Of a DNA stretch of 64,000 bases, positions 27,527-41,413 are shown piece by piece. This DNA is from a virus. Its lineage: Duplodnaviria; Caudoviricetes. Below the pieces are notes generated by a model that saw only the letters and a program-made list of their open reading frames with translations, had not been told where the DNA came from and searched no databases. Positions within the stretch are counted from its first letter, which is position 1; each line of letters starts with the position of its first letter. The DNA is taken from IMG/VR virus record IMGVR_UViG_2974795854_000001, positions 1 to 64,000 of that record; one strand, 5' to 3'. The position numbers were made by a program, and so were the translations under genes.

Positions 27527-28108
27527 CTACTTGTTTTTTACTTTGTCGTTAAATAATTTGAAAAGTCCTATTAACCCTTCGTCTGCTTTTTTGTTACTCC
27601 TCACTATCACATTTCTCCTAGCGCTCATTGGAATCTCCTCCTCCAACATGAACATCTTGTGGCACCTCTTCATTAGCTCGTTTCCCTTGTGGCTCAATAC
27701 GAAGTACTTTATTCTCTCAGATTTGGCCCACTCTATTATCCAACCATCTTTACGTAATTTTCCGAACTGAGTATAATCACTTATTCCCATCTCTTTAATA
27801 GCGTCTTTAAATTGTTGGACTGTAAATATCTGTAGTGGATATATGTAGAAGAGTATACCTATCTGCCTATCTGTCAGGTTGTGGTTTCTTTTGGCCCACT
27901 CCCTTACCATATAAGAGTATTGTAAGAAGTTGTAATCTAAATTAGCAACCCTTACCTTCTTCTTATAATCCTTCTGCTTCTTTAATGCCATCCTTTTAAA
28001 TAAGATATCTTCTGTTATCCTCTCATGGACGAAGCCTTCGTGCTCCCTTCTTTTAATTAGTTTGTCATCCATTGTAGTAAAGGTAAGTAATTTACCTGAC
28101 ATATACAA
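27527..28108 (-). CDS. winged-helix (MarR-like) protein
   Basis: LTDRQIGILFYI...LRKDGWI...FVLSHKG. Confidence 0.5.
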   Translation of the reverse strand: MYMSGKLLTFTTMDDKLIKRREHEGFVHERITEDILFKRMALKKQKDYKKKVRVANLDYNFLQYSYMVREWAKRNHNLTDRQIGILFYIYPLQIFTVQQFKDAIKEMGISDYTQFGKLRKDGWIIEWAKSERIKYFVLSHKGNELMKRCHKMFMLEEEIPMSARRNVIVRSNKKADEGLIGLFKLFNDKVKNK

Positions 28109-28166
28109 ATGAAAAAAGAGCTAAAGCTTTTGGCCTTAACTCTTTGGTTGGTTGGTGTTTATGTTA

Positions 28167-28709
28167 TTACGATCCTTCTGTAGACACTACTGTATATACA
28201 TCGTCTAGCTTAGTGATAGTCCAAACAAATGCGTCGAAAGGTGTGAACCCTCTTAGAGTCAACTCTGTTAAAGTGCCATCTCCTGCGTTAACGTCGGCTG
28301 TCTGTGCTACCTTGTCTTCCATCTTCTCGATGAAGTTTACAAGCGCTAATACTGACCTTGTGTTAAAGTCGAAAGTACCTCCGGTAGCCCTAACTAAACT
28401 TACAGGACGTCTTGTAGTCAATGCAGATCTACCGCTAGCTCCTGATTGAATTGTTTCTTCTTCTACGAAAGTACATGTAAATGTAGTTCCTGAGTCTGCT
28501 ACCACTACAGTCCACTTAGATGCACTGTAAGGAGAGTTACCTTTTGATATTAAGTCAGAGTATGTTCCGTCTGCGGTACCGTTTGCTTGTAGTTTTGAAA
28601 CTAATAATGCTGCTCCTTTAAGAGCGTCAGTTGAACAAGCTGCGTTTTCTGCAGGGAATAAAATATCTACTTTAGGTAAGTACGATAATGCTGCTATTCC
28701 TTTTCCCAT
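28167..28709 (-). CDS. hypothetical protein (possibly structural)
   Basis: 180 aa ORF with its own -7 element (28740-28747) and a downstream hairpin (28114-28145). Confidence 0.6.
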   Translation of the reverse strand: MGKGIAALSYLPKVDILFPAENAACSTDALKGAALLVSKLQANGTADGTYSDLISKGNSPYSASKWTVVVADSGTTFTCTFVEEETIQSGASGRSALTTRRPVSLVRATGGTFDFNTRSVLALVNFIEKMEDKVAQTADVNAGDGTLTELTLRGFTPFDAFVWTITKLDDVYTVVSTEGS

Positions 28710-28758
28710 TGTTTGTGTTGTTTATAATTTGTTACACTACAAAGATAACCCTTTTATT

Positions 28759-28941
28759 TTACTGTTCTTGACCCCCCCTTTTCACCAACATTTTTATTTT
28801 TGTACAATGCCTAGCGAAGCTCTTTACTTCACAAGCGCTCACGAAATCTAAGTTATCTAAATACTCTTTCTTAAGGATGTTCAACTCCCTAGGACTCTTG
28901 TCGATTAAATTCTCTATATTAACTCTCATATTAATTTTCAT
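28759..28941 (-). CDS. small hypothetical protein, UVR-domain-like
   Basis: ELNILKKEYLDNLDFVSACEVK resembles the UvrB/C coiled-coil motif; overlaps the recombinase stop. Confidence 0.35.
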   Translation of the reverse strand: MKINMRVNIENLIDKSPRELNILKKEYLDNLDFVSACEVKSFARHCTKIKMLVKRGGQEQ

Positions 28942-29644
28942 ATAATTTGATTAAGTTGCTTACTTGTATTGGGTAAAATTTATTTCCTCTAGATGTTTCA
29001 AATCCGTTTTTATTAAGGTAATCTGCTATTTGCTTTAAAGTACTCTTGTTAGACTTCATTCTAGATGCCATAGCGTACGCTCTACGGTTGTTCTCGTTAG
29101 CAATGGCCTTTGCCTTTCTAATTACTTTAGAGCGCTCTCTGGCCATATCAGAGAGATTCTGAGGGTTGCCTAAAGAAGTGATTCGATCACCGGCTTTAGT
29201 AATATGGTACCCGTCAGATTCTATATTGGCCTTTATCTGACCTAAGGCGTCTTTTACCCTTCTCTGAGTTTTATCTTTTTCTTCCTTAGCAATTAAGAAC
29301 TTGATGTTTTTAGAAAACTCGCTATCGTGAGGTGAATCGGCTTCTATAAAAGGTACACCCTTCTCCTCTAGCTTTGCTATGGTCATAAACCCTGCTCTAG
29401 ATAATCTATCTATGCGGTGAACCAATAATACCGCAGAGTGTTTCTTACAAAGCTCTAATGCCTTATCAAATCCTTCTCGAACTTGGGCCCCACCCGAGAT
29501 TATCTCGCTAACCTCTTCTACTATAGTTCCGCCGTAAGACTTAACAAACGCCTCTACAGAACTCTTTTGAACTTCTAACCCTATTCCATCTCTTTGGCTT
29601 TCTGTCGACGCCCTGTAGTATGCTACGTATTTCTTATTATCCAT
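28931..29644 (-). CDS. serine recombinase (resolvase catalytic domain plus short recombinase C-terminal domain)
   Basis: YVAYYRASTESQ (catalytic Ser), LLVHRIDRLSR, C-terminal TLKQIADYLNKNGFETSRG; likely start MDNKK at 29644. Confidence 0.9.
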   Translation of the reverse strand: MDNKKYVAYYRASTESQRDGIGLEVQKSSVEAFVKSYGGTIVEEVSEIISGGAQVREGFDKALELCKKHSAVLLVHRIDRLSRAGFMTIAKLEEKGVPFIEADSPHDSEFSKNIKFLIAKEEKDKTQRRVKDALGQIKANIESDGYHITKAGDRITSLGNPQNLSDMARERSKVIRKAKAIANENNRRAYAMASRMKSNKSTLKQIADYLNKNGFETSRGNKFYPIQVSNLIKLYEN

Positions 29645-29672
29645 CTCTATTAATTTTTGATTGTTGTTTTGA

Positions 29673-29903
29673 TTACTTAGTGGCACTCTCTACAGAAACT
29701 ACTTGTGAGTAGTATCTAGTTACTTTTATTTCTTTTCCTTGTCTATCAGGATATCCTATGGTGGCCATCTTATTACCTAGTTTTAATATAGTACCTTCTT
29801 TAAGGAGGCTGTACCTCGGTACAACAAATACTACTCTATCTCCAACCTCTAATTCTACACTTATAAAATCTTTCATAATACAAATTGTTTTCGTTTTGCT
29901 CAT
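29673..29903 (-). CDS. hypothetical SH3-like small protein
   Basis: LEVGDRVVF...EGTILKLG; -7 element TATCTTTG at 29906-29913 abuts the start. Confidence 0.55.
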   Translation of the reverse strand: MSKTKTICIMKDFISVELEVGDRVVFVVPRYSLLKEGTILKLGNKMATIGYPDRQGKEIKVTRYYSQVVSVESATK

Positions 29904-30040
29904 TACAAAGATAGTACATAAAGTCTGTTAAACCTAATTTATTTTCAATTATTTTTAATTTATTTTATAAGTCATTGATTATTAACGTTTTACATAATTA
30001 AGTTATTTGGAGGGGTAAAAAAGTATAAAATATTTATTTG

Positions 30041-30076
30041 TATATTTGCATACACGCTTTATTTTTATTATATTTA
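30041..30076 (+). promoter_or_regulatory. tandem -7 promoter elements (TATATTTG 30041, TATATTTA 30069)
   Basis: Bacteroidetes TAnnTTTG consensus facing a 600-nt plus-strand region that ends at the 30657 terminator. Confidence 0.55.
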
Positions 30077-30079
30077 CAA

Positions 30080-30410
30080 CATATTACATACGAAGAGTTT
30101 CTAAGGGTTTGACTTACTCAAACTAAGTACCGAAGATAAAGAACCTAGCGAATAGGGAAGTAGTTAGTCGGGCTACATATCGTTCTGGCCAAGGATAGGC
30201 GTGCTAAGATAGTTATTCGAGCGAAGGAACACTGAGGAGTGTTTGGAGTAAGAGAGGCAATTCCTCCGCCATTTATGGCTCCCATTATAACAGGAGGTTT
30301 ATACTAAAGAGCGAAAGCTTTTAAACCAAATTAAGTTATATGTTTTCGTCTAAATTGTATCACTCTAACGGGTTTTACTCTTTAGCGAAGCTATATCCAG
30401 AGAGGATTAC
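30080..30410 (+). ncRNA. candidate structured non-coding RNA (unclassified)
   Basis: No ORF in the track; hairpins at 30107-30123, 30228-30243, 30306-30322 (GC-GAAA-GC) and 30383-30393; upstream promoter. Confidence 0.35.
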
Positions 30411-30479
30411 CTAAAGTATATTATAAGAGAATAAATATAGATATAATAGAATATAGATAACCTAGCCCCGAGATAAGAT

Positions 30480-30632
30480 ATGAGATATAAAGACTATAAA
30501 ATAGAAAGTAAGAAGAAGAGTAAGTTGGATTCTAAAAAAGAAGATTCGACTGCTCGAGTTTATAAACGAAAAAATAGCAAGGTGAAGGATGCCCTATCTT
30601 TTAAAATTAGGGGCAAATCCAAATTAGCCTAG
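30480..30632 (+). CDS. small basic peptide, 50 aa
   Basis: MRYKDYKIESKKKSK...KSKLA*; below the ORF-track cutoff; ends just before the bidirectional terminator. Confidence 0.35.
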   Translation: MRYKDYKIESKKKSKLDSKKEDSTARVYKRKNSKVKDALSFKIRGKSKLA

Positions 30633-30656
30633 CACCAACCACCAGTTGAAAACAAG

Positions 30657-30685
30657 AAAGCCACCTTTAATTAGATGGCTTTTTT
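30657..30685. terminator. bidirectional intrinsic terminator at the 3' end of the tRNA array
   Basis: AAAGCCA-CCTTTAATTAGA-TGGCTTTTTT. Confidence 0.7.
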
Positions 30686-30693
30686 CATTTAAG

Positions 30694-30765
30694 AACTTCT
30701 AGAGGGATTCGAACCCCCAATCTACCCGTTCGTAGCGGAGCGCTTTTCCGTTAAGCTATAGAAGT
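30694..30765 (-). tRNA. tRNA-Arg(ACG)
   Basis: Cloverleaf; loop CTACGAA; T-arm GGGGG-TTCGAAT-CCCTC. Confidence 0.9.
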
Positions 30766-30772
30766 GTGAAAG

Positions 30773-30855
30773 TGCATCCAGAGGGATTCGAACCCCCAAT
30801 CCTTTCGGCGACAGGTTTTAAGCCTGTAGTGTATAGCCATTTCCACCATGAATGC
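30773..30855 (-). tRNA. tRNA-Leu(TAA)
   Basis: ACAGG-CTTAAAA-CCTGT; extended variable region. Confidence 0.9.
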
Positions 30856-30864
30856 ATTAGTAAG

Positions 30865-30947
30865 TACCGGAAGAGGGATTCGAACCCTCAAAAGTCTAGG
30901 TTTCTAAAACCCAATGATCTACCATTCTCTTTTTTACTCACTCCGGT
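30865..30947 (-). tRNA. atypical tRNA-Leu(TAG)
   Basis: TGGGT-TTTAGAA-ACCTA and a good T-arm; expanded irregular D region, no long variable arm. Confidence 0.6.
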
Positions 30948-30982
30948 ATAAAAGGGGCGTGACATTATGACACCCCCTGTGT

Positions 30983-31059
30983 TGGACAACCGTATGGGAA
31001 TCGAACCCATGTAATCAGGTTCACAGCTTGACCGCCTTTCCAATTTGGCGCAACGGAGG
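30983..31059 (-). tRNA. atypical tRNA-His(GTG)
   Basis: Loop CTGTGAA and encoded CCA; acceptor stem has two mismatches and no G-1. Confidence 0.65.
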
Positions 31060-31070
31060 ACTCTTATAAG

Positions 31071-31142
31071 ATGGAGTACAGGGGCTCGAACCCCGACGAA
31101 CTGGCTCAAAACCAATCATGCTAACCATTACATCATACTCCA
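31071..31142 (-). tRNA. tRNA-Gln(TTG)
   Basis: ATTGG-TTTTGAG-CCAGT; TGGAGTA/TACTCCA acceptor. Confidence 0.9.
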
Positions 31143-31188
31143 ATGTCTAGTTTCTACTTTTTTGGGAGATACTAGTAAACAACCTTCG

Positions 31189-31263
31189 TACTATCGACGA
31201 GACTCGAACTCGCATTGCGCACCTTGAAAGGGTGGGTTCCTACTCCATTTAGAAGACGATAGC
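31189..31263 (-). tRNA. tRNA-Glu(TTC)
   Basis: Loop CTTTCAA; GCGAG-TTCGAGT-CTCGT. Confidence 0.85.
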
Positions 31264-31272
31264 AAATCAAAG

Positions 31273-31344
31273 TCGAGTAGGCAGGGATCGAACCTGCATT
31301 CTCCGACGTCCAAGGTCGGCACGTGCCAATTTTGTCACTACTCG
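31273..31344 (-). tRNA. tRNA-Pro(TGG)
   Basis: CCGAC-CTTGGAC-GTCGG; C1:G72. Confidence 0.9.
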
Positions 31345-31348
31345 AAAT

Positions 31349-31385
31349 AAAAAAAGCCCCAATGGTTTGTACCAAAGGGGCTCTT
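31349..31385 (-). terminator. intrinsic terminator/attenuator hairpin directly upstream of tRNA-Pro
   Basis: AGCCCC-TTTGGTACAAACCATT-GGGGCT-TTTTTT. Confidence 0.75.
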
Positions 31386-31408
31386 AATAGGATATTGTGC
31401 GTTGAAAA

Positions 31409-31498
31409 CTATGATAGTTCATCAATCCCATGATAAGACACCCTCGATGGTAATCGAAGTTGTTCTAAGGGCTCTTGATGTAATAGTCTTGCGTTCAT
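31409..31498 (-). CDS. putative leader peptide 1 (29 aa, MNARLLHQEPLEQLRLPSRVSYHGIDELS)
   Basis: ATG 4 nt after TATATTTA of promoter repeat 1; followed by a terminator and then tRNAs. Confidence 0.55.
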   Translation of the reverse strand: MNARLLHQEPLEQLRLPSRVSYHGIDELS

Positions 31499-31500
31499 AT

Positions 31501-31538
31501 TGTAAATATACAACTTTTTTTTGATATAAAAAAACTTA
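31501..31538 (-). repeat. 38-bp promoter repeat, copy 1
   Basis: TAAGTTTTTTTATATCAAAAAAAAGTTGTATATTTACA; identical to 32741-32778 and near-identical to 34336-34372. Confidence 0.85.
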
Positions 31539-31550
31539 TACTATTTTATT

Positions 31551-31844
31551 TTATGTTCTTGTTGGATTCTTCTTAACTCTCTTCTTTGCAGCAGCTAATT
31601 TCTTAGTATATGCACTCATACCTCCGGCCTTCTCTACGTCCTTCTTAAAGGCTGCAGATCTATTGGCGTCGTTACGACCTCTAGTTCCTCTAGCTTCTTC
31701 TTCTTTCTTAAGCTTGCCACTTGTCTTAACAGTGTACTTTTTAGCTTTAGTGTTTGCAACACCACTCTTATCAGATTTGATCGTTACGTTTTTCTTAGGT
31801 GCAGTTTTCTTAGTTGGCACCGTCTTTCTTGTAGTTCTTCTCAT
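31551..31844 (-). CDS. highly basic histone-like small protein
   Basis: Likely start MRRTTRKTVPTKKTAPKK at 31844; Lys/Arg/Ala/Thr-rich. Confidence 0.6.
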   Translation of the reverse strand: MRRTTRKTVPTKKTAPKKNVTIKSDKSGVANTKAKKYTVKTSGKLKKEEEARGTRGRNDANRSAAFKKDVEKAGGMSAYTKKLAAAKKRVKKNPTRT

Positions 31845-31895
31845 TGTTGTTTGTTTAACGTTAAGTAGTAAAGATACGAAAAATACAAACATAAG

Positions 31896-31967
31896 AATCG
31901 GAGACCGGAATTGAACCGGTATAGCACAGTTTTGCAGACAGGCCCCTTCTCCGTCAGGTTCTCCGAT
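31896..31967 (-). tRNA. tRNA-Cys(GCA), weak anticodon stem
   Basis: Loop CTGCAAA; perfect acceptor and T stems; anticodon stem mismatches. Confidence 0.7.
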
Positions 31968-31972
31968 ATAAG

Positions 31973-32045
31973 TGCGATAGGTAGGTTTCGATCCTACTCC
32001 TCTGGGGTTTCAAGCCAGTGCTTCTACCAAGTTAGCTTCTACCGC
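31973..32045 (-). tRNA. tRNA-Phe(GAA)
   Basis: Loop TTGAAAC with a C31:C39 mismatch; T-loop ATCGAAA. Confidence 0.75.
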
Positions 32046-32125
32046 ATTAAAAAACAACAGCCAAGACCTTCTCTCGGATTTTATGGCGGCTCCTTTACAT
32101 TATAGGATGCTCTGTTGTTTTATCG

Positions 32126-32194
32126 CGCGCACCCAAAGAATCGAACTCTGTCCTACGGGGTTGGAATCCGTTTGGCCACCATGGCCTGATGCGC
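32126..32194 (-). tRNA. tRNA-Trp(CCA)
   Basis: Loop TTCCAAC; GCGCATC/GGTGCGC acceptor; short D loop. Confidence 0.8.
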
Positions 32195-32201
32195 ATTAAA
32201 G

Positions 32202-32273
32202 AGGCTAGGGAGAATTACGATATCTCGACCTGACGCTTAACAGGCGCCTGCTCTTCCTCTGAGCTACCTAGCC
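32202..32273 (-). tRNA. tRNA-Asn(GTT), atypical T-loop
   Basis: GGCGC-CTGTTAA-GCGTC; canonical D arm; T-loop ATCGTAA. Confidence 0.75.
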
Positions 32274-32282
32274 GTGTGTTTG

Positions 32283-32367
32283 TAGAGAAGAAGGGATTCG
32301 AACCCTCGGAGGCGTTAACCCCACTACTTTAGCAAAGTAGCACCTTAAGCCACTCAGACACCTCTCT
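32283..32367 (-). tRNA. tRNA-Ser(GCT)
   Basis: CTACT-TTGCTAA-AGTAG; long variable arm. Confidence 0.9.
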
Positions 32368-32372
32368 AAATG

Positions 32373-32462
32373 TGGAAGAAGTGGGGCTCGAACCCACACG
32401 GGCTTTTAAACCCCAACTGTTTTCAAGACAGCGACCCGTAGACCTACTTGGCTTACCCTTCC
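32373..32462 (-). tRNA. tRNA-Ser(TGA)
   Basis: GCTGT-CTTGAAA-ACAGT; long variable arm. Confidence 0.88.
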
Positions 32463-32469
32463 ATTATTG

Positions 32470-32551
32470 TTGCACCGTGCGGAATCGAACCACTCCCCTC
32501 TCAAGAACTGTTTTACAGACAGCCTGCTAGAACCACTAGCTTTACGTTGCA
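32470..32551 (-). tRNA. tRNA-Tyr(GTA)
   Basis: GCTGT-CTGTAAA-ACAGT; one acceptor mismatch. Confidence 0.82.
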
Positions 32552-32564
32552 AGTTATAAAAAAC

Positions 32565-32599
32565 AAAAAACCCTCTTAGCTACGAAAGACCAAGAGGGT
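32565..32599 (-). terminator. intrinsic terminator/attenuator hairpin upstream of tRNA-Tyr
   Basis: ACCCTCTT-GGTCTTTCGTAGCT-AAGAGGGT-TTTTT. Confidence 0.75.
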
Positions 32600-32648
32600 A
32601 AAAATCAAAATTAATAATCAAAAATTAATAAAAGAAATGAATATATTT

Positions 32649-32738
32649 TTAAGACAAGTACAACCTCTCGACATTATAGCTACTAAAGCTACAATTCGAA
32701 TACCAAGAGAAATTATTGTATGTCATGTTTGTTTTCAT
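32649..32738 (-). CDS. putative leader peptide 2 (29 aa, MKTNMTYNNFSWYSNCSFSSYNVERLYLS)
   Basis: Same geometry as leader 1; rich in Tyr/Ser/Asn/Phe with Trp and Cys. Confidence 0.55.
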   Translation of the reverse strand: MKTNMTYNNFSWYSNCSFSSYNVERLYLS

Positions 32739-32740
32739 AT

Positions 32741-32778
32741 TGTAAATATACAACTTTTTTTTGATATAAAAAAACTTA
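32741..32778 (-). repeat. 38-bp promoter repeat, copy 2
   Basis: Identical to 31501-31538. Confidence 0.85.
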
Positions 32779-32800
32779 CATCATTTTATTTTAAAAATAG

Positions 32801-32870
32801 TTGGAATAGAGGGAATCGAACCCATCTCCACACGCATATAAGACGTGCTAACCTACCTAGGCTTACTCCA
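32801..32870 (-). tRNA. tRNA-Ile(TAT), atypical
   Basis: CACGT-CTTATAT-GCGTG; short D arm and imperfect T stem. Confidence 0.65.
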
Positions 32871-32992
32871 ATAAAGATCTTGTGGTCACTATATCCACAT
32901 CACACGCTGTTTTAAGGTTTATCTCTGTTACCAAAGAATGCAGGCATACGTGTTACCTAAAAGCCTATAAGTGTTTTTCACTAAGATCCAAG

Positions 32993-33063
32993 AACCTCTA
33001 CAGGGATTCGAACCCCGATCATAGCGGTAGAAGCGCCGTATTTTTCCATTAAACTATAGAGGC
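32993..33063 (-). tRNA. tRNA-Arg(TCT)
   Basis: Loop CTTCTAC; CGGGG-TTCGAAT-CCCTG. Confidence 0.85.
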
Positions 33064-33124
33064 AAAAAAGACCTACCCTTGGACACTTTGAGACGTTCTC
33101 CTAGAAGTGTGGTAGGTACTGTTG

Positions 33125-33198
33125 TACCAAATGACAGATTCGAACTATCGACCTTCTCCTTGTAAAAGAGCTGCTCTAAACCACTGAGCTAATCTGGT
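33125..33198 (-). tRNA. tRNA-Val(TAC)
   Basis: Loop TTTACAA; canonical D arm GCTC-AGTGGTTTA-GAGC. Confidence 0.85.
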
Positions 33199-33300
33199 AT
33201 ATGGTAGGCATGTTACTACACCTACTTTTTTGTTTTTAACGTGGAGAAGCTTATTTCCATAACTCAAAACTCCATTACAATACTTTTAACCTAATAAATA

Positions 33301-33348
33301 AAAAGGGGCTCTTGTTCACGATATCTAGTATTCGCTAAGCCCCCTTTT
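33301..33348. terminator. large-loop terminator-like hairpin inside the tRNA array
   Basis: AAAAGGGGCT...AGCCCCCTTTT. Confidence 0.5.
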
Positions 33349-33408
33349 CAAAAAAACACTTAATCTAATGCGCTTCAAAACTTCTCGAGAGGCGGATTAA
33401 GTCTGTTG

Positions 33409-33482
33409 AGCACTAATCAGGGATCGAACCCGAATTATCTTCGTTACAAATGAAGTACCATTTCCTATTCAGTCATTAGTGC
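33409..33482 (-). tRNA. tRNA-Thr(TGT)
   Basis: CTTCA-TTTGTAA-CGAAG; GCACTAA/TTAGTGC acceptor. Confidence 0.8.
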
Positions 33483-33492
33483 ATAATTAAAG

Positions 33493-33569
33493 CGGTCTAA
33501 GAGGGATTCGAACCCTCGTTTTAGAGCAGTGACAGTGCAATTCGTGTTACCAAACACGCTTATTAGACC
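33493..33569 (-). tRNA. tRNA-Asp(GTC), weak anticodon stem
   Basis: Loop CTGTCAC; perfect acceptor and T stems. Confidence 0.75.
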
Positions 33570-33644
33570 AGTTGGCAGATGTCGATTAACTGCCGAGTGT
33601 CGTACGAACACCCTTTATCCCGAAGAGTGTAGAAACGACTTTTG

Positions 33645-33713
33645 TGGCGGGTATGGGAGTCGAACCCATCTATAAGGACTTATGAGGCCCTCCGGTCACC
33701 ACGACCACCCACA
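33645..33713 (-). tRNA. tRNA with CAT anticodon (Met or Ile2)
   Basis: AGGGC-CTCATAA-GTCCT; U1:C72 mismatch; short D arm; lacks the three G:C pairs of initiator tRNA. Confidence 0.75.
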
Positions 33714-33723
33714 ATTTTAAAAG

Positions 33724-33796
33724 AGCGTAAGACGAGGTTCGAACTCGCTATCTCCTACTTGGAAGGCAGGCGCCATTCCACTATGGCCTCTTACGC
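33724..33796 (-). tRNA. tRNA-Gly(TCC)
   Basis: CCTGC-CTTCCAA-GTAGG. Confidence 0.9.
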
Positions 33797-33884
33797 AAAT
33801 TCCTCTTTTTATAGAGTTGAGGTAAAAACATTCTCTTAGTCCAACTTTTTTCCTTTTTCTTTCTTTCGGTAGTCTTCCGCCTCG

Positions 33885-33957
33885 TTGGAATAGAAGGTTT
33901 CGAACCTACGACCTCTCCCGTATCAGGGGAGTGCTCTAACCGCTGAGCTATACTCCA
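33885..33957 (-). tRNA. tRNA-Ile(GAT)
   Basis: CTCCC-CTGATAC-GGGAG; canonical D arm. Confidence 0.9.
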
Positions 33958-34006
33958 ATATTACCTTATTCGCTTATAATCCATTATATAAGCTAATTTA
34001 CTTATG

Positions 34007-34079
34007 TGCCCCTGCTAGGAATCGAACCTAGCCCCACTGTTTAAAAGACAGTTGCCTACAACCTGTTTGCTACAAGGGC
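34007..34079 (-). tRNA. tRNA-Lys(TTT)
   Basis: ACTGT-CTTTTAA-ACAGT. Confidence 0.88.
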
Positions 34080-34107
34080 AATTTGGTGTCAGTAAGGGAT
34101 CTTATTG

Positions 34108-34182
34108 TGGAACTCATGGGTATCGAACCCATCTCACTCTGATTGCAAATCAAAGTCGCCTTGCCTTGGTTCATGCAGCCCC
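34108..34182 (-). tRNA. tRNA-Ala(TGC)
   Basis: Loop TTTGCAA; G3:U70 identity pair; irregular D arm. Confidence 0.78.
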
Positions 34183-34183
34183 A

Positions 34184-34214
34184 ATAAAAAACCCTCCTTT
34201 TTAGGGGAGGGCTG
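34184..34214 (-). terminator. intrinsic terminator/attenuator hairpin immediately upstream of tRNA-Ala
   Basis: CCCTCC-CCTAAAAA-GGAGGG-TTTTT. Confidence 0.75.
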
Positions 34215-34240
34215 TAATAAATATCTTATATCTAAAGAAA

Positions 34241-34318
34241 TTATAGTACACGGCTCCTCCCCAAGAGTTTCACTCCCTTGGTTCTAATATCTGTCGCTAT
34301 GTTCATAATTGTTTTCAT
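34241..34318 (-). CDS. putative leader peptide 3 (25 aa, MKTIMNIATDIRTKGVKLLGRSRVL)
   Basis: Between promoter repeat copy 3 and the terminator; MKT.M start shared with leader 2. Confidence 0.5.
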   Translation of the reverse strand: MKTIMNIATDIRTKGVKLLGRSRVL

Positions 34319-34335
34319 CGATCTTATTGCTTTGA

Positions 34336-34372
34336 TACAAATATACAACTTTTTTTGATATAAAAAAACTTA
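34336..34372 (-). repeat. promoter repeat, copy 3 (with consensus TATATTTG)
   Basis: Near-identical to copies 1 and 2, with one T fewer and TTTG instead of TTTA. Confidence 0.85.
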
Positions 34373-34390
34373 CTTGTAAATAATTCTGTT

Positions 34391-34537
34391 TTAGATGTCT
34401 TTTCCGGTTTTTTCTTCAATCTTTCGCTCCAACTCGTCTGCAGCACTATTGAAATATGCCTGTAATTTAGGGTTGTTCTTCAAGATTAATGCGAAACCTG
34501 CCGCTCCGGCCAATACTCCTACTAAAAATGTAATCAT
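34391..34537 (-). CDS. small membrane protein, 48 aa (YtxH-like N-terminus)
   Basis: MITFLVGVLAGAAGFALILK...; -7 element TATATTTG at 34565-34572. Confidence 0.6.
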   Translation of the reverse strand: MITFLVGVLAGAAGFALILKNNPKLQAYFNSAADELERKIEEKTGKDI

Positions 34538-34590
34538 AGTTTATAATGTTTATAATGTTAGATGCAAATATAGTAAAAGTATGCGAACTA

Positions 34591-34722
34591 TTATTCAATC
34601 CTTTCTTTATATTGTTCGACGGCCTGTCCTGTTTTCTTATTTATGTACTCTCTTAAGTACTTCCTTTGATCTTCTGATAGCTCAGACCAAAATTCCCCGA
34701 ATGATCTCCATGTACGTGCCAT
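34591..34722 (-). CDS. hypothetical protein, 43 aa
   Basis: MARTWRSFGEFWSELSEDQRKYL...; below the track cutoff. Confidence 0.45.
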   Translation of the reverse strand: MARTWRSFGEFWSELSEDQRKYLREYINKKTGQAVEQYKERIE

Positions 34723-34742
34723 ATTTTATAAAATTATCGTTA

Positions 34743-35036
34743 TTAATACACCTCTATTGAGTTTGTATAAGTTATTTCAAAGTCTTCTGGGGCGTTTAAT
34801 GCAAATAACAGGCCATTTGCAAAAGCTTCTGCTGCTACATCACCTTTCTCGTGGTAGTAGTCACCGTAAGAAGATGCTAAGACGTCGTTTACATAAACTC
34901 GAGCTCCTACATAGTCTCCTCCGAGGATACTTTCTCTCACTTCTTCATCTCCTAAATCTTGGCCCTCATAATCGTAGAACACTGTATCTATTCTAATAGT
35001 TTTTAATTCGATCACTCCTAGTAATTTATCTGACAT
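34743..35036 (-). CDS. hypothetical acidic protein
   Basis: 97 aa ORF, first gene of the leftward strand block. Confidence 0.6.
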   Translation of the reverse strand: MSDKLLGVIELKTIRIDTVFYDYEGQDLGDEEVRESILGGDYVGARVYVNDVLASSYGDYYHEKGDVAAEAFANGLLFALNAPEDFEITYTNSIEVY

Positions 35037-35467
35037 AATAATCCTTGTTTAAATGAGCTATAAAGGTAGTAAAATCTTTCGAGGGGTGCAAGTAAATAAT
35101 CCGGTAAAAAGTTTGTCACGTACTTTAGGGGCCATTTTATGCATGTTTTTGCACCAACTTTCGAAGTTCTCTTGCACTTTCTGTTTTAAGACATACTATA
35201 CCCACGGGCCTCGCGCCGCTATGGTAAACCCGATTTTTTTAATGGGGTGGGGTTCGTATTTTTTCAAATTTGCGTGTAACTTTTAGCTTTTCTAGGCTGT
35301 TAATTACTTGGTTTGCAGTTACTTACATTAAACTCTCTGACTTTCTCCGCTTCATTTTATACTGGTTAATCTGCTATAAATAAAGTCTGTTTAATACCTG
35401 TTTAACATAGTTTATTAGTACAGGATATTTATTTCCCCCTTACTATTCTTTAAATAATTATTATTTT

Positions 35468-35532
35468 ACTGCCACCCTGTCATATAATACCTTCCACATA
35501 CTGCCACCCTGTCATACCCTACCTTCCACATA
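35468..35532. repeat. 32-bp-period tandem repeat (ACTGCCACCCTGTCATA...TACCTTCCACATA) in the strand-switch region
   Basis: ACTGCCACCCTGTCATA at 35468 and 35500; TACCTTCCACATA at 35488 and 35520; partial third copy near 35562. Confidence 0.8.
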
Positions 35533-35762
35533 ACAACACCTGACAATCTGACACCATAACATGCCATGCTGTCATATGCTTACCAGTTAACCAACCTCAA
35601 CACAATATCACTATCACAATAGCAGCCTATCACATAATAGACCTTACCAACCTACCCCCCAAACCACCAACAAAACCCCCACAAAACCCCTTTATTTTTT
35701 ATAATGTATCCCGTACGCGCGCGCAAATACCTATAGTAGCCCACAAAAATCTCTACTTTACC

Positions 35763-36087
35763 GTTTAACGATTTTTTAGGTAGTTCATCGGATTTTTAGT
35801 TTAATATCTCTAAGTCCGCCGTATATTTGTAGGGCAGTTAACAAGTAACACACTGCAAACGTTCTTTTAACATATTGATAAGCAATTAACGAAAATACCT
35901 ATTATAGGGTGTATATGTGTATAGCTGCCAATAAAAGTAAGTAAGTAGTATCTTAATGTATAAATCTACTAAAAGCTTGGTTTAGGGTCTACAAAATACA
36001 GTTTAACCGATTTTTAGGTAGTTCGTCGAATAAATTGCTTCAAATCAATATTGTTTCTATACATTTGTAGCGTAGTTAGTAAGTAAC
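35763..36087 (+). promoter_or_regulatory. two imperfect about 85-bp direct repeats, each carrying a -7 element (35822 TATATTTG, 36060 TACATTTG): tandem early promoters
   Basis: GTTTAAC(C)GATTTTT(T)AGGTAGTTC.TCG ... TA.ATTTGTAG ... AAGTAAC at 35763-35849 and 36001-36087. Confidence 0.6.
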
Positions 36088-36722
36088 TAATTATAACATA
36101 AGTTCTTTAATTTAGTGTAGTTTATAACCCCTTGGAAGTGTGGCAGCCTTAAAACTGTCAAAATCTAGCAAATTAGCTAGGAAGAACCAAGATACTTGAT
36201 TTTTTAATAACGGTGAAATACCGTGTAAGTTTAAAACAGGACGCAAGGGTAATTTGTATAAAGTGGGCAAAGCCCTAAAATTCAAACAATAAGCACTATA
36301 TTAATTATAAAACCGAAAAGGCAGTTCTTCGGTATATAAGAAACTGTCAGGAGGGTAACTTAGAATGTTACCAGTGGAAGCCACCGAAAAATACTTGGCA
36401 CTCCTATACCGGCACGATTAGAGTGCTTATAAAGTAATAAAAACACTTTGAAATTGATAATTTTAGCAATTTCGTGTTGCACTACGATAAAACCGTGATA
36501 AGTTTTATATGGTGTTTTACTAGCCAATAGCAAGGGCAATAATGTAAACATCATTTTGCAATATTAAAACGATTTAAACCAAGTAAAATTTGACAAAATA
36601 GAAGTATAAACAATAAATTAAAATTACAACTTGCTGCACAGACGTGGAGAACATTCTGTGCAGTACCTAAGCGTAGACACGCAAAATAATCAAATAAAAT
36701 AATAATCTTAAAATTAAAAGTT

Positions 36723-37208
36723 ATGGCAAATGTATCTAGTTACCAAAAAAATGTAAATGATGTAAACAAAGCACTTAAAGCAGAAGGTAAAACTTTGGGA
36801 GGGTGTGTAAAAATGTTACTGATATTTAAGAATGAAATAAAGTTAAGCGAGCCCGCAATCGAATTATTGACCTTCATTAGAGACGATTCCGATGCATTCA
36901 AAAAATTTAAGAAAACCGTTCGTACTTCAAAGTACAAAGGTAAGGACTTAGGCACTTATTCAGCTTACTACGTATTGCAGACCCTTCACAAAACTTTGAA
37001 GGTGGCAAAGGATATGACTACAGAGCCAATAGAGGCTAAAAAAGAGGTGGCGAAGCCTGCAACAGAAGTAAGAACTCCTGAACAAATAAAAGCGGCGAAA
37101 GACAGAGCTAAAAAAGCGGCTGCAACAAGGGCAGCTAATAAGGCTAAAAAAGAAGCGGCTAAAAAAGCAGAAGCTAAAAAAGAAGTATTAGAGCCTGTAA
37201 TGGCATAA
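36723..37208 (+). CDS. first early gene; hypothetical protein with Lys/Ala-rich tail
   Basis: 161 aa ORF with an A/T-rich initiation region, followed by a terminator. Confidence 0.7.
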   Translation: MANVSSYQKNVNDVNKALKAEGKTLGGCVKMLLIFKNEIKLSEPAIELLTFIRDDSDAFKKFKKTVRTSKYKGKDLGTYSAYYVLQTLHKTLKVAKDMTTEPIEAKKEVAKPATEVRTPEQIKAAKDRAKKAAATRAANKAKKEAAKKAEAKKEVLEPVMA

Positions 37209-37250
37209 TTAAGGTATGCTGTTTACGATTAAGCAGTATTTTTTCATTTT

Positions 37251-37287
37251 GCCCGTGGTAATCCTTGACAGTTGCCACGGGTTTTTT
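37251..37287 (+). terminator. intrinsic terminator
   Basis: CCCGTGG...CCACGGG-TTTTTT. Confidence 0.7.
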
Positions 37288-37374
37288 ATATGGTAATTTT
37301 TGGTAACACCTTGAGTCGGCTCTTGGTGGGTGGTTCGATTCCACTAATTGCCCCTAATTTTAAAACAGTAAGAT

Positions 37375-37488
37375 ATGGAACTTGCAAAAAAAGTATTCGT
37401 AAATGTATTAGTGGTTATTATAGTAATAACTGCATTAAGTTTATTGGTCGCTATCTTATCAGGAGCAGTAAACACATCAAATCTTTAA
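37375..37488 (+). CDS. small TM peptide, 37 aa
   Basis: MELAKKVFVNVLVVIIVITALSLLVAILSG... Confidence 0.45.
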   Translation: MELAKKVFVNVLVVIIVITALSLLVAILSGAVNTSNL

Positions 37489-37512
37489 TAAACCCCCCAA
37501 AATAAATAAGTT

Positions 37513-37767
37513 ATGAAAAGAATTAGCTACGAGAAATTAATGTCTCTAAACCCTACACTATTATCAGAAGTTATAAATAGAGAAGGACAAACTATATCTT
37601 TGTATGAACACCCTCTTTACGGTGGAGACCATACCATTATAGCAGCGTATCACCCTGAAAAGATAGCCGTAAATACCAACTTTTGGGATACAGAGGACTT
37701 AGAAGGAGATGACTATTGCTTAGTTTATGCATTCGGTGAGTTGCATGAGGCATGGGAAATGGTATAA
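37513..37767 (+). CDS. hypothetical protein
   Basis: 84 aa; LYEHPLYG motif. Confidence 0.65.
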   Translation: MKRISYEKLMSLNPTLLSEVINREGQTISLYEHPLYGGDHTIIAAYHPEKIAVNTNFWDTEDLEGDDYCLVYAFGELHEAWEMV

Positions 37768-37801
37768 AAAAACAGGTATCCACTATCAAAAACAGGACGA
37801 A

Positions 37802-38221
37802 ATGAACCAACAAGAATTAAGAGAGAGAAAACTACAGATACTAGACGAAACTGTAAAGTATTACTCCGAGGACTTAAGTAGAAGGGCGCTCGACGAAAAC
37901 TTCATGTGTATGTACAAGACTCCCGAGGGTAAGATGTGCGCTGTAGGTAGATGTATGAGAGATGACGCACCATTTAAAGACCTTAATACACAAGGTGAAT
38001 TACTCTCTTTAGAGATAATCCGTGATGTAGAATTTAAAAAGCAAGATAAGAAGTTAGACACCCTCTTAAAGGATAAGTACAAGGGTGTAAACATAGAGTT
38101 TTGGATGACCCTGCAAAGTTTGCATGACCAAAGCCTTAATTGGGAAAGTGGAGGACTTTCGGAAATGGGAGAGGTAGAGTTAAATAGAATTAAATCAGAT
38201 ATAGAAAAAGGAGAGTTATGA
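37802..38221 (+). CDS. hypothetical protein, paralog family A copy 1
   Basis: YYSEDLSRR...C.YK...KMCAVGRCM; likely start MNQQ at 37802. Confidence 0.75.
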   Translation: MNQQELRERKLQILDETVKYYSEDLSRRALDENFMCMYKTPEGKMCAVGRCMRDDAPFKDLNTQGELLSLEIIRDVEFKKQDKKLDTLLKDKYKGVNIEFWMTLQSLHDQSLNWESGGLSEMGEVELNRIKSDIEKGEL

Positions 38222-38511
38222 GAAGAGTTAAAAGGTTATCGTTAATATTAGTACTGACGTTAGTATTTGTGACAATAGTTGCATCTGCACAAGAAAGTAC
38301 AGAGCCTACCTATGTGGTACAAGGTGACAAAATAGTAAAAGTAGGAGGTGGTAAATCTGCATCCGAAGGAACAAAGACCAAATACACCATGGATGTAAAA
38401 GGTGTTGAGTACCCTGTGTATAAAAGTACTAGGGGTAGCTACTATATTCTTAGGACTAGTAAGAAGTCTGGAAAAGAGTATAAGCAATATATAAAAATAA
38501 CTGGCCTATAA
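38218..38511 (+). CDS. small exported protein
   Basis: Signal peptide ending ASA|QES; VYKSTRGSYY. Confidence 0.65.
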   Translation: MRRVKRLSLILVLTLVFVTIVASAQESTEPTYVVQGDKIVKVGGGKSASEGTKTKYTMDVKGVEYPVYKSTRGSYYILRTSKKSGKEYKQYIKITGL

Positions 38512-38548
38512 AAGAAGACCTATTCACTATCCAAAACCTAGGGAAATT

Positions 38549-38953
38549 ATGATTAAGAGACAACTGATAGAAATGGCAATATACTCTATATCTTCCGTAG
38601 CCTTTGCTATAGAAGAGCTGGAATCAAAATTGCAGGACTGGAAGAGACGTAATATTGCAGAAGGAAACGATGAACCTAGGCTGTACCCAAGGCGTTGCGA
38701 CGTAACAGGAGAGGGTATGGATAAGGGTTACCTATTCCATGACACAATGTACATAAAGTATCTATCTGACGCCAAAAAAATGGCTAAAGAGAATGGGTAC
38801 GACTCTCTTCAAGATAGCTATGACAGCGGTTTCCATTATTGGACAGAGTGGGAGCAAGAGGCCTACGACGGTGGGAGTGCATATGACATTATGGGTAAGT
38901 TGTACCTCTTCAAAGTTAAACGTAGAGGTGAAGGTGATTGGGTAAAACAATAA
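38549..38953 (+). CDS. hypothetical protein
   Basis: 134 aa; RRCDVTGEGMDKGY. Confidence 0.65.
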   Translation: MIKRQLIEMAIYSISSVAFAIEELESKLQDWKRRNIAEGNDEPRLYPRRCDVTGEGMDKGYLFHDTMYIKYLSDAKKMAKENGYDSLQDSYDSGFHYWTEWEQEAYDGGSAYDIMGKLYLFKVKRRGEGDWVKQ

Positions 38954-38960
38954 GTACAAA

Positions 38961-39032
38961 GCTCTTTTCGTCTAGCGGTAAGGACATTCGGTTTTCATCC
39001 GAAAAACATAGGTTCGAATCCTATAGAGAGTA
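38961..39032 (+). tRNA. tRNA-Glu(TTC), copy A
   Basis: TTCGG-TTTTCAT-CCGAA; ATAGG-TTCGAAT-CCTAT. Confidence 0.88.
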
Positions 39033-39052
39033 CTAATATTAAAATTTAAGAG

Positions 39053-39541
39053 ATGTTAAAAGTAAAAGCAGAAATCGGAAGGTCTAAAGAAGACATGATA
39101 AAATTGTTGAACGAGACTGCCCAATACTACTCCGAGGATTTGAGTAGAAGGGGTACTAAATCAGGCCCTATAAGTGGGTGCGTGTACAAGTCCGATAAAG
39201 GAAGTATGTGCGCTGTAGGTAGATGTATGGTAGATGAAGCACCTTTTGAAGAGTTTAACTTACAAGGGAGCATCGGATCACTAGCTATCCTCAACGGCGT
39301 TAACCCCCGAACTAAAGAAGGTGCTGAAAGGGTAGACGCTTTTCTTAAAGATGAGTATAAGGGTTACCCTGTATCATTTTGGGAATGCCTGCAAGAGTTC
39401 CACGACGGAGAACAATATTGGGTAGTAGGTGCAGACGGCGATGAAAATGGAAGTATGGAGAACGTATTAGAAAGAAGGTTGCTTAAAATAAGAGCTATAA
39501 AGAATAATATACTCTTTGGTAAATATAAAATACAAAGTTAA
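39053..39541 (+). CDS. hypothetical protein, paralog family A copy 2
   Basis: YYSEDLSRRG...MCAVGRCM. Confidence 0.75.
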   Translation: MLKVKAEIGRSKEDMIKLLNETAQYYSEDLSRRGTKSGPISGCVYKSDKGSMCAVGRCMVDEAPFEEFNLQGSIGSLAILNGVNPRTKEGAERVDAFLKDEYKGYPVSFWECLQEFHDGEQYWVVGADGDENGSMENVLERRLLKIRAIKNNILFGKYKIQS

Positions 39542-39557
39542 AAACACTATCAAAACT

Positions 39558-39983
39558 ATGACACGAACGAAAGAAGAGGCCCTAGCCTTATTAAACGAGA
39601 CTATTGAATACTACTCCGAGGATTTGAGTAGAAGAGGTATAGAAAGTAGAGGGTCTGATTTATGCAAATACCGTGTAAAAGGCGGCGGAATGTGCGCTGT
39701 AGGTAGATGTATGAAAGATGGATTGGACTATGAGGATCTAAACAAGAGAGGCGGCCTTTACTCATTGGCAGGCGTACTTATATCAAAGGTAGATAAGTCT
39801 AAACCTCTACCCGAATTAGATAAATACCTTAAAGACGAGCATAAAGGATACCCAGTAATTGTTTGGGAGGTACTTCAAACAATACATGACGATTCAGGGA
39901 ATTGGAAGGGTACAGAGGCCTCTAAAGTAGTATTAGAGAAGGAGCATAAAGCAGCTATTAAAAAAATAAACAAAGTATATTAA
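39558..39983 (+). CDS. hypothetical protein, paralog family A copy 3
   Basis: YYSEDLSRRG...MCAVGRCM; start MTRT 4 nt after AACACTATCAA. Confidence 0.75.
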   Translation: MTRTKEEALALLNETIEYYSEDLSRRGIESRGSDLCKYRVKGGGMCAVGRCMKDGLDYEDLNKRGGLYSLAGVLISKVDKSKPLPELDKYLKDEHKGYPVIVWEVLQTIHDDSGNWKGTEASKVVLEKEHKAAIKKINKVY

Positions 39984-40127
39984 ACAATACAATGGGGGTA
40001 TTAGGGGAGACACGGGTAGATAATAGTTCAAAGAACCATATGACCAAATAGAACACCTTTAATATTTTACATACAAACAAAAATCAATTAATAATCAAAG
40101 CTGTAGAGCATCGTACTAAAATTAATT

Positions 40128-40418
40128 ATGGCAAACAAGACACAATCAGAAAAGTACATCGATTTAATTTCTCAATCTTCTAAAGATGTAGAGAAAGAAC
40201 AATTACAATTTAGAGCGCAAGAAGCATCTCTTCAAGCAGACTCTTCAATCTTAGAGACTAAGAAAGCAATTGCAACGGCAAAGAGAGAGCTTACTGAATT
40301 AAAGAGAGCAATTCCTTACAGCTTCGACAAAGAAATCTCGAAGACAATAGAGGTAAAGAACCTTGAAGAAGGTCTTGCTATAGCTGAGAGTATTCAAAAG
40401 AGTAGATTCGGCTCGTAA
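40128..40418 (+). CDS. coiled-coil hypothetical protein, family B copy 1
   Basis: 96 aa; similar to 41083-41355. Confidence 0.7.
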   Translation: MANKTQSEKYIDLISQSSKDVEKEQLQFRAQEASLQADSSILETKKAIATAKRELTELKRAIPYSFDKEISKTIEVKNLEEGLAIAESIQKSRFGS

Positions 40419-40448
40419 ACACTATCAAAAACCCTAAAAACTTTATTT

Positions 40449-41264
40449 ATGAAGACAGTAAAACGTGGACAAAGAATAACCCTCAAAAATAGTCAAGGGG
40501 TTGAGTTGGAAATAACTGTTTTTGATAATCACCTCTCTAGTGTAAAGGGGGGTAATGAACAGGTATTCAAAATGTTTGATATGTACACTGACGAGGAAAG
40601 GATAGACTTTTGTACAAAGGCCTACGGTTATCCGGCAGAATTTGGAATGTGTCCGGAGTGTAGAATAGGCGACTACGAAGCATTGACAAGGTTGGTGGAA
40701 AGCTTCAAGGATTTAGAGAGTAAGATAATCATAAAATCTAAAGAAGGTGTAGTTATAAAAGGGTACTTAAAGAGAGATACTATAGAGTTTGAATCAGGCG
40801 AAGAAGTTTTTAAGTACAGTGTTTCAAGCACCCATTTATCATCTGCAGGGGGTTCAAACGAAGCAATATTCTCTGCATTAAAAGAGAGAGGACTTTTACC
40901 GGAAGGTAAGATGGAGTTTTGTAGAGAGGCCTACGGCTATTACCCAGAGAGAGGGTCGTTTCCATGTTATAGGGAAAACGATATGTTGGCAGCCTCTAGT
41001 GTTATCAAAAAAATACAAACAAGATTAGAAAAAGTTAGAGAAACAATGCCCAACGAAGGGCAAATTAAATCAGATAAAAAAGATGAATTACAAGAGCAGA
41101 TTACAGAAGACGGAAGGACAGACAGGGGCAGACCAATTGGCGCACGACGTGGAACAGGCAGAGTTGCAAGCCAAGGCAGACTTACTGGCAACAAAATTGC
41201 AGTTAAGCAAAGAAAGGCAAAAGTTGGAGAACTTAAGGTCAAGCAGGAGCCTATCTCTATCTAA
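40449..41264 (+). CDS. hypothetical protein with two internal repeats
   Basis: GGNEQVF...FCTKAYGY and GGSNEAIF...FCREAYGY; the C-terminal 60 aa overlap the next gene in another frame. Confidence 0.65.
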   Translation: MKTVKRGQRITLKNSQGVELEITVFDNHLSSVKGGNEQVFKMFDMYTDEERIDFCTKAYGYPAEFGMCPECRIGDYEALTRLVESFKDLESKIIIKSKEGVVIKGYLKRDTIEFESGEEVFKYSVSSTHLSSAGGSNEAIFSALKERGLLPEGKMEFCREAYGYYPERGSFPCYRENDMLAASSVIKKIQTRLEKVRETMPNEGQIKSDKKDELQEQITEDGRTDRGRPIGARRGTGRVASQGRLTGNKIAVKQRKAKVGELKVKQEPISI

Positions 41265-41355: not shown

Positions 41356-41413
41356 TAAACACTATCAAATACATATACAATAAAAGCTAGTAGCGACGTT
41401 TACTAGCTTTTCT

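Follow-up and report, generated by a model that had tools for sequence, protein, structure and literature searches.

The stretch analysed here, referred to as the window, comprises the first 64 kb (positions 1 to 64,000) of a 72,979-base virus record (IMG/VR IMGVR_UViG_2974795854_000001) from a Callevirus podophage of the family Pervagoviridae. It carries an array of 24 transfer RNA (tRNA) genes in three blocks that together cover all 20 amino acids, and each block is preceded by a cassette composed of a promoter repeat, a short leader open reading frame (ORF) and a U-tailed hairpin. We describe these cassettes, numbered like the blocks they precede, as likely transcription attenuators whose leaders list the codons read by the tRNAs downstream. 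The array lies on the minus strand, so the coordinates of all its features are read from high to low. Over the 4-kb array region, the sequence is 96% identical to that of Cellulophaga phages phi38:1 and phi40:1, which belong to the same family and genus.

Read in this direction, block 3 (32800..34182) encodes tRNA-Ala(UGC), Lys, Ile(GAU), Gly, Met, Asp, Thr, Val, Arg(UCU), and Ile(UAU). Block 2 (31895..32551) encodes tRNA-Tyr, Ser(UGA), Ser(GCU), Asn, Trp, Phe, and Cys. Block 1 (30693..31344) encodes tRNA-Pro, Glu, Gln, His, a Leu(UAG)-like element, Leu(UAA), and Arg(ACG), and a terminator-like hairpin (30657..30682) marks the end of the array. ARAGORN called 18 of the array tRNAs at default settings. 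The Phe and Cys tRNAs were added by Rfam and also by ARAGORN at a relaxed threshold, which was the only program to call Tyr, Ile(UAU), and an 84-nt gene at 30864-30947. The fold of this 84-nt gene is a cloverleaf whose anticodon loop corresponds to Leu(UAG), and relaxed ARAGORN calls the gene as Gln in a different register. The tRNA-Ala gene (34182..34107) has a G3:U70 acceptor, a T arm, and a UGC anticodon, and its two lines of support are the fold and the positional homology to called tRNA-Ala genes in relatives. The Ala (34107-34182), Ile(UAU) (32800-32870), Tyr (32469-32551), and Leu(UAG)-like (30864-30947) genes are non-canonical and were missed by default ARAGORN, and some of them by Rfam. 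A sequence-only reading of the window had named the same blocks; the correction needed is that several of their members (Tyr, Ile(UAU), Leu(UAG)-like, Phe, Cys, and Ala) are non-canonical. The GenBank records of phi38:1 (L001) and phi40:1 (L002) omit tRNA-Pro, Glu, Ala, Met, Trp, Cys, Tyr, Ser(UGA), Leu(UAG)-like, and Ile(UAU), and hypothetical coding sequences (gp071 and gp068) cover some of the tRNA genes. In the same records, leaders 1 and 3 are annotated as proteins gp070 and gp066, and an opposite-strand ORF (gp067) is annotated across leader 2.

Three copies of the promoter repeat were identified. Copies 1 (31501..31553) and 2 (32741..32793) belong to 65 nt held in common at 92% identity (31489-31553 and 32729-32793), and an 18-nt and a 24-nt core are common to all three copies, the third occurrence (34339-34373) lying in copy 3 (34336..34373). 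The core is present three times in the entire genome, always at the cassettes, and zero times in shuffled sequences. With a -7 box and a T-rich -33 region about 19-20 nt upstream of it, the repeat is predicted to be a Bacteroidota sigma-A promoter, with a start expected about 5 nt past the box. The -7 boxes (31510..31503, 32750..32743, and 34345..34338 in copies 1, 2, and 3) match 7-8 of the 8 positions of the sigma-A consensus, and the -33 element is degenerate. The ATG of the leader follows the box by 4 nt in copies 1 and 2 and by 19 nt in copy 3. Since the -7 box of Flavobacterium is positioned at -12 to -5 (PMC9723704), the predicted start in copies 1 and 2 is the A of the ATG, and the messenger RNA (mRNA) would be leaderless. 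The 4-nt spacing between box and ATG recurs at the homologous leaders of Maribacter phage Panino, phage phi4:1, and metagenomic contig L068. The same spacer and -7 box motif is found ahead of ordinary protein genes in other flavobacterial phage contigs, and the five unrelated contigs matched in a promoter-pattern scan of viral contigs all lack tRNAs, so the repeat appears to represent a general flavobacterial-phage promoter type, credibly strong and not specific to tRNAs. In three IMG/VR contigs (L005, L006, and L007), the promoter motif is followed by about 300 nt without an obvious ORF, several hairpins, and a U-tailed terminator, an arrangement that makes a candidate small RNA.

At every cassette, as in leader-peptide attenuators, a short ORF lies between the promoter and the first tRNA. 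Leader ORF 1 (31409..31498, ATG at 31498) consists of 29 codons and a stop, and its codons 5-17 (31486..31448) are 13 consecutive codons read by block 1. Leader ORF 2 (32649..32738), also of 29 codons and a stop, contains 16 consecutive Tyr, Asn, Phe, Ser, Trp, or Cys codons (codons 7-22, 32720..32673). Leader ORF 3 (34241..34318) has 25 codons and a stop, and codons 7-17 (34300..34268) all specify block-3 amino acids. When the six frames of the 64 kb were scanned for runs composed of the amino acids of one block, the longest for block 1 (14) proved to be in leader 1 and the longest for block 2 (16) in leader 2. Both contain all six amino acids of their own set, and the next longest runs are low-complexity sequences of 12.

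The match between leaders and anticodons was evaluated with Watson-Crick and standard wobble pairing against stop-free windows of the same length taken from the six frames outside the array. Codons of the own block account for 18/28, 19/28, and 19/24 codons in leaders 1, 2, and 3, as against 2-8 for the other blocks, and every tRNA of a block (7/7, 7/7, and 10/10) is matched by one or more cognate codons in the leader of that block. Coverage and count were jointly reached by 19/31525, 0/31525, and 2/35743 control windows for blocks 1, 2, and 3, respectively; the enrichment in regulatory codons that characterizes attenuator leaders is therefore present here with empirical nulls of <3e-5 to 6e-4. 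The split Arg box follows the same rule. CGN makes up just 9% of the Arg codons in the long ORFs of the phage, and a CGN codon stands inside the run of every block-1-type leader (six lineages), where the block encodes tRNA-Arg(ACG). Block-3-type leaders, whose block supplies tRNA-Arg(UCU), have AGA as the Arg codon in their runs. In leader 1, no tRNA of block 1 reads codon 4 (AGA), and phi38:1 has a different codon there; the functional run is accordingly taken as codons 5-17. The match of amino acids between leader and block, first noticed in the sequence-only reading, is real and far beyond chance: it exceeds the empirical windows by orders of magnitude and holds for the split Arg box, and the part that did not stand is this codon 4, which lies outside block-1 decoding.

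Between each leader and its block lies a predicted intrinsic terminator with at least 6 U. Terminator 1 (31345..31381) has a stem-loop at 31381..31356 followed by a U tract (-15.7 kcal/mol), terminator 2 (32558..32598) a stem-loop at 32598..32571 and a U tract (-14.4 kcal/mol), and terminator 3 (34183..34212) a stem-loop at 34212..34191 and a U tract (-9.9 kcal/mol). The U tracts themselves are at 31355..31349, 32570..32558, and 34191..34186. The first tRNA begins 4, 6, and 3 nt past the T run, that is, 11, 19, and 9 nt past the stem, in cassettes 1, 2, and 3. The anatomy claimed in the sequence-only reading, namely three promoter repeats, an ATG placed 4 nt after the -7 element in two of them, ORFs of 29, 29, and 25 codons, and a strong U-tailed hairpin just ahead of the first tRNA, was recovered at all three cassettes, with the two promoter cores confined to them genome-wide.

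Each leader also contains a segment that could compete for the terminator. In leader 1, the switch region (31439..31459) comprises a 7-bp hairpin (31459..31442) whose 3' half is also part of the antiterminator strand (31452..31439). In leader 2 (32663..32694), an ORF-internal hairpin (32694..32674) is followed by an antiterminator strand (32672..32663) that pairs with the terminator 5' arm. In leader 3 (34253..34281), a local hairpin (34281..34261) shares nucleotides with the last part of the run, and a G-rich antiterminator strand (34264..34253) is complementary to the terminator 5' arm. In leaders 1 and 3, the 5' half of the local hairpin overlaps the end of the run and the 3' half lies within the antiterminator strand, which gives the classical four-segment layout. 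In all 13 leaders compared, the best partner of the terminator 5' arm was found in codons 15-26 of the leader ORF, directly following the run and ahead of the stop codon. Relative to 2000 shuffles of the upstream RNA, the pairing is significant in the leader-1 family (Fisher combined p of 1.7e-5) and the leader-2 family (6e-4). Terminator sequences vary among the lineages of the leader-1 family, and the partner segment varies along with them. Moreover, the two most divergent terminators (leader 1 of L018 and leader 2 of phi4:1) pair best with their own ORF among nine ORFs. In the leader alignments, the antiterminator strand is misaligned by indels.

The effect of a translating ribosome was modelled on nascent RNA reaching as far as the terminator loop, with a 28-nt footprint masked. 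The terminator arm is sequestered as long as the A site falls within approximately the first 13-16 codons; with the ribosome further along, the arm is released. This result supports the classical direction, in which a stall in the run leads to read-through. By the position of the partner in all 13 leaders, the preference for the own ORF over others, and the dependence on masking, the alternative pairing has the properties of an antiterminator, the energy in the leader-3 family being excepted (see below).

Leaders and blocks are retained together in other phages. Leaders 2 and 3 of phi38:1 and phi40:1 are identical to those of the window, and leader 1 differs by five substitutions in four flanking codons, all non-synonymous and all outside the invariant 13-codon run. 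An invariant run with non-synonymous flanks points to selection on codon content and not on the peptide. Panino shares the Pro-to-Arg block and also has a block that starts with Ala, both preceded by their own homologous leader and terminator, and phi4:1, an unrelated 146-kb myophage of another genus, carries all three modules in a different order. Metagenomic lineages with the module are L017/L018, L020, L068, and L119, the last three of which add further variants; altogether, homologous leader ORFs are present in seven other lineages. Across the leaders, the order of residues varies and the set of residues is constant. L017/L018 offers a natural swap: its block consists of Pro, Tyr, Gln, His, Arg, a class-II-like element, and Ser, and the run of the L018 leader has Ser and Tyr codons and no Glu codon, whereas Ser and Tyr are absent from the runs of the remaining block-1-type leaders, each of which has two Glu codons. 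In these sequences, leader composition tracks block content. Conservation in related phages, which the sequence-only reading had suggested examining, thus extends to distant and unrelated phages as modules of leader plus block.

Protein queries (gp069-like and gp063-like) matched only relatives at the level of phi38:1. Pattern scans of metagenomic and viral sequences found a tRNA block downstream in only 2 of the 139 loci retrieved, most of the metagenome matches being due to chance, and a scan with the terminator/antiterminator pattern returned 13 loci, among which the real relatives were only L020 and L003, the latter being phi38:1 itself.

Taken together, these features make it likely that each cassette is a ribosome-mediated (leader-peptide) transcription attenuator that controls one tRNA operon, and the tRNA block is probably made mainly when ribosomes read its codons slowly. 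We infer from them that the leaders are translated, that the hairpins end transcription, and that the switch and its feedback operate in the way described here. The phage phi38:1 has no RNA polymerase of its own (PMC5335546), and leader-peptide attenuation has been predicted for amino-acid operons of Flavobacterium (PMC9723704). In the proposed sequence of events, the host RNA polymerase would start at the strong sigma-A type promoter; the first nucleotide transcribed from cassettes 1 and 2 would be the A of the start codon, which would make the mRNA leaderless. A ribosome would translate the short leader, which at its core lists without a break the codons of the downstream tRNAs. When charged tRNA is scarce and decoding is slow, the ribosome would sit in the run and leave the G-rich segment 3' of it free. 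The free segment would pair with the terminator 5' arm so that no terminator forms, and the polymerase would read into the tRNA block. When decoding is fast, the ribosome would cover the G-rich segment, the U-tailed hairpin would form, and transcription would stop a few nucleotides before the first tRNA. Newly made phage tRNAs would speed up decoding of the leader and shut down their own operon, amounting to a supply-and-demand feedback for each block. The sequence-only reading had already interpreted the cassettes as attenuators, and the computations on codon match, the Arg split, the antiterminator, masking, and conservation support it.

Several observations weigh against attenuation. Of the 40 run codons, four require extended U34 wobble. 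The alternative pairing is uneven: antiterminators overlapping the ORF ends, which the sequence-only reading had proposed to look for by folding, were found and co-vary in the leader-1 and leader-2 families, but in the leader-3 family the antiterminator energy is not significant against the 2000 shuffles (p 0.14). The antiterminator strand of leader 1 ends well before the stop codon, and in the simple model a ribosome parked at that codon leaves the strand unmasked, so the model needs a moving ribosome or a local hairpin that re-forms behind it. With no ribosome present, leaders 1 and 3 are predicted to antiterminate and leader 2 to terminate; hence the untranslated state is not uniform. U-tailed hairpins that the attenuator model does not explain are also present inside the blocks, with no leader ORF ahead of them, at 30950-30990 (between His and the Leu-like gene), 32050-32125 (Trp and Phe), and 33295-33400 (two, between Thr and Val); they could be partial terminators, elements of processing or stability, or small RNAs. 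The Leu tRNA of L018 is not secure, and the six Leu codons of its leader depend on the class-II-like element being tRNA-Leu. Leaderless mRNAs make up only about 5% of flavobacterial mRNAs (PMC9723704). Finally, a T4-like Klebsiella phage with seven tRNAs has no such leader, and short ORFs in the tRNA region of T5, considered as the same element, were rejected since they look like ordinary small proteins and show no codon match. With T5 and the T4-like phage both lacking such leaders, attenuation of this kind is not a general rule for phage tRNAs.

The same ribosome-dependent switch might instead report general translation capacity or transcription-translation coupling, for example, a global slowdown, host shut-off, or the stage of infection, and not the supply of particular tRNAs, and its direction could then be reversed. 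The leaders sample many codons and are not repeats of one, a property shared with stress-sensing upstream ORFs such as that of whiB7 (PMC10274678), and the modelled untranslated state that differs between leaders, together with the ambiguous geometry of leader 1 at its stop codon, would be accommodated by such a sensor. We consider it unlikely nonetheless, since it has no need for three leaders that split the 20 amino acids exactly as the blocks do, nor for the rare CGN Arg codon only where tRNA-Arg(ACG) is encoded, and it leaves unexplained the change of the leader with block content.

A more remote explanation takes the hairpins as elements of processing or stability, or as constitutive ends of small leader RNAs, with the ORFs untranslated and the tRNAs made by unconditional read-through or from other starts. 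The block-internal hairpins without a preceding leader ORF fit it, and cleavage by RNase P would be expected to free the leader as a small RNA whatever the mechanism. The explanation does not account for in-frame codon runs bounded by start and stop codons that match the anticodons downstream and keep their composition in distant phages, nor for the co-varying complementarity to the terminator arm, and we give this explanation little credence.

Still less probable is that the cassettes are moron-like genes for small proteins with their own promoter and terminator, whose peptides act in trans and whose place ahead of the tRNAs is incidental. Leaders 1 and 3 are indeed annotated as hypothetical proteins in phi38:1 and phi40:1, and the N termini of several leaders are alike. 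The conserved property, however, is the residue set and not the residue order, close relatives differ solely by non-synonymous changes outside the run, and leader composition coincides, in each of the lineages, with the set of tRNAs downstream, an agreement that no function of a peptide would predict.

An Rfam scan of 28000-45000 with E up to 0.1 returned tRNAs, a transfer-messenger RNA (tmRNA), and two sub-threshold matches at chance level (a plastid 5'-UTR family across tRNA-Arg at 30693-30765, with 36 vs 65.7 bits, and a permuted-tmRNA model beside the tmRNA), and no T-box or known leader family. The Rfam His, Leu, Thr, and Trp leader models gave no match either; they are sequence families of Proteobacteria, so the mechanism is not judged by this failure. 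Direct sensing of tRNAs by the leader RNA through codon-anticodon pairing without translation, like a multi-specifier T-box, is the least credible of the alternatives, for although the leader triplets are complementary to the anticodons of the downstream tRNAs, they follow one another directly in a single frame between a start and a stop codon, no T-box or other cis-regulatory family was detected at E up to 0.1, and the alignments show no conserved T-box-like architecture.

The leader-peptide attenuator can be compared with known systems. Enterobacterial attenuators include the multivalent thr, ilvGMEDA, and ilvBN leaders and the single-valent trp, his, leu, and phe leaders. The phage cassettes share with them a short leader rich in regulatory codons, an intrinsic terminator ahead of the genes under control, an antiterminator that excludes the terminator and would be set by the position of the ribosome, and the availability of charged tRNA as the presumed signal. 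They differ in that the regulated genes are the tRNAs themselves and not biosynthetic enzymes, that the leaders are inventories of 6 to 9 amino acids (7 to 10 anticodons) compared with repeats of one to three, that two of the three mRNAs are predicted to be leaderless in a host that does not use Shine-Dalgarno sequences, and that the element, a viral one, is exchanged as a module among unrelated phages. The pheST attenuator of E. coli, with the pheM leader, controls an aminoacyl-tRNA synthetase and responds to one amino acid. It likewise uses leader-peptide attenuation on a gene of the translation apparatus and senses the charging of its own cognate tRNA; unlike the phage cassettes, it is cellular and concerns a synthetase gene and a single amino acid. 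T-box riboswitches bind tRNA directly without translation, have a conserved structure, and control synthetase and amino-acid genes. Sensing of tRNA status and read-through of a terminator via an antiterminator would be common to both, whereas the conserved T-box structure is absent from the phage leaders according to Rfam. In mycobacteria, stalling on the whiB7 upstream ORF is believed to give antitermination, and knock-down of tRNAs or synthetases activates it (PMC10274678). The coding sequence of this ORF, which is enriched in Ala, determines the starvation that is sensed, and the gene controlled is a transcription factor (PMC10274678). The whiB7 ORF is not matched to the genes downstream and is unrelated to tRNA genes; by analogy, it may be regarded as the nearest general counterpart that we found.

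Leader-peptide attenuation as a class is textbook knowledge. For its proposed use on tRNA operons, with a leader that inventories the downstream anticodons, we found no account in the full-text open-access literature, and an older or paywalled description is possible. The role and expression of phage tRNAs have been debated for decades, codon compensation and escape from tRNA-targeting defences being the main ideas. If attenuation holds, the synthesis of phage tRNAs would be driven by demand and set block by block by the speed of decoding. Classical attenuation would then reach genes that encode the very molecule sensed, as well as viruses and a phylum without Shine-Dalgarno initiation, here apparently with leaderless leaders. 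The phages phi38:1 and phi40:1 and their host Cellulophaga baltica are in culture, and infection transcriptomes exist; the RNA-seq study of phi38:1 (PMC5335546) does not discuss the array. The three cassettes that divide all 20 amino acids provide built-in controls for specificity, and Panino, phi4:1, and the metagenomic contigs provide natural swaps of leader and block content. The leaders may also serve as compact parts for codon-specific or tRNA-specific sensors.

A wider role in counter-defence can be proposed only tentatively. The cassettes may sense and replace: decoding speed would be read codon by codon, a block whose host counterparts are depleted would be switched on, and it would be switched off once supply is restored. 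Anticodon nucleases or host shut-off induced by the phage are possible causes of such depletion. Together with RtcB and tmRNA, the cassettes might then form an integrated translation-rescue programme, and leader plus block might be a mobile module among unrelated flavobacterial phages. The genome encodes an RtcB RNA ligase (49463-50866, plus strand; Pfam PF01139, E 1.8e-33) and a tmRNA (42950-43309, plus strand) found by ARAGORN and Rfam (86.6 bits), the predicted tag of which is unusual. Both fit a phage that invests in continued translation and do not reveal what the attenuators respond to; the link of the cassettes to cleavage of host tRNAs is only contextual. Panino has a permuted tmRNA within its tRNA array, and a long ORF between the tRNA blocks of contig L018 resembles RtcB by eye only.

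Elsewhere in the window, two tRNA-Glu(UUC) genes with equal scores are located on the plus strand (38961-39033 and 41414-41486), each right after a protein gene. Neither has a leader cassette, and both are additional copies that lie apart from the array with its putative attenuators. A minus-strand gene (31551..31844), situated between block 2 and cassette 1, encodes a Lys-rich protein of 97 amino acids. This protein matches no Pfam family, and its homologue, gp069 of phi40:1, is a virion structural protein according to mass spectrometry.

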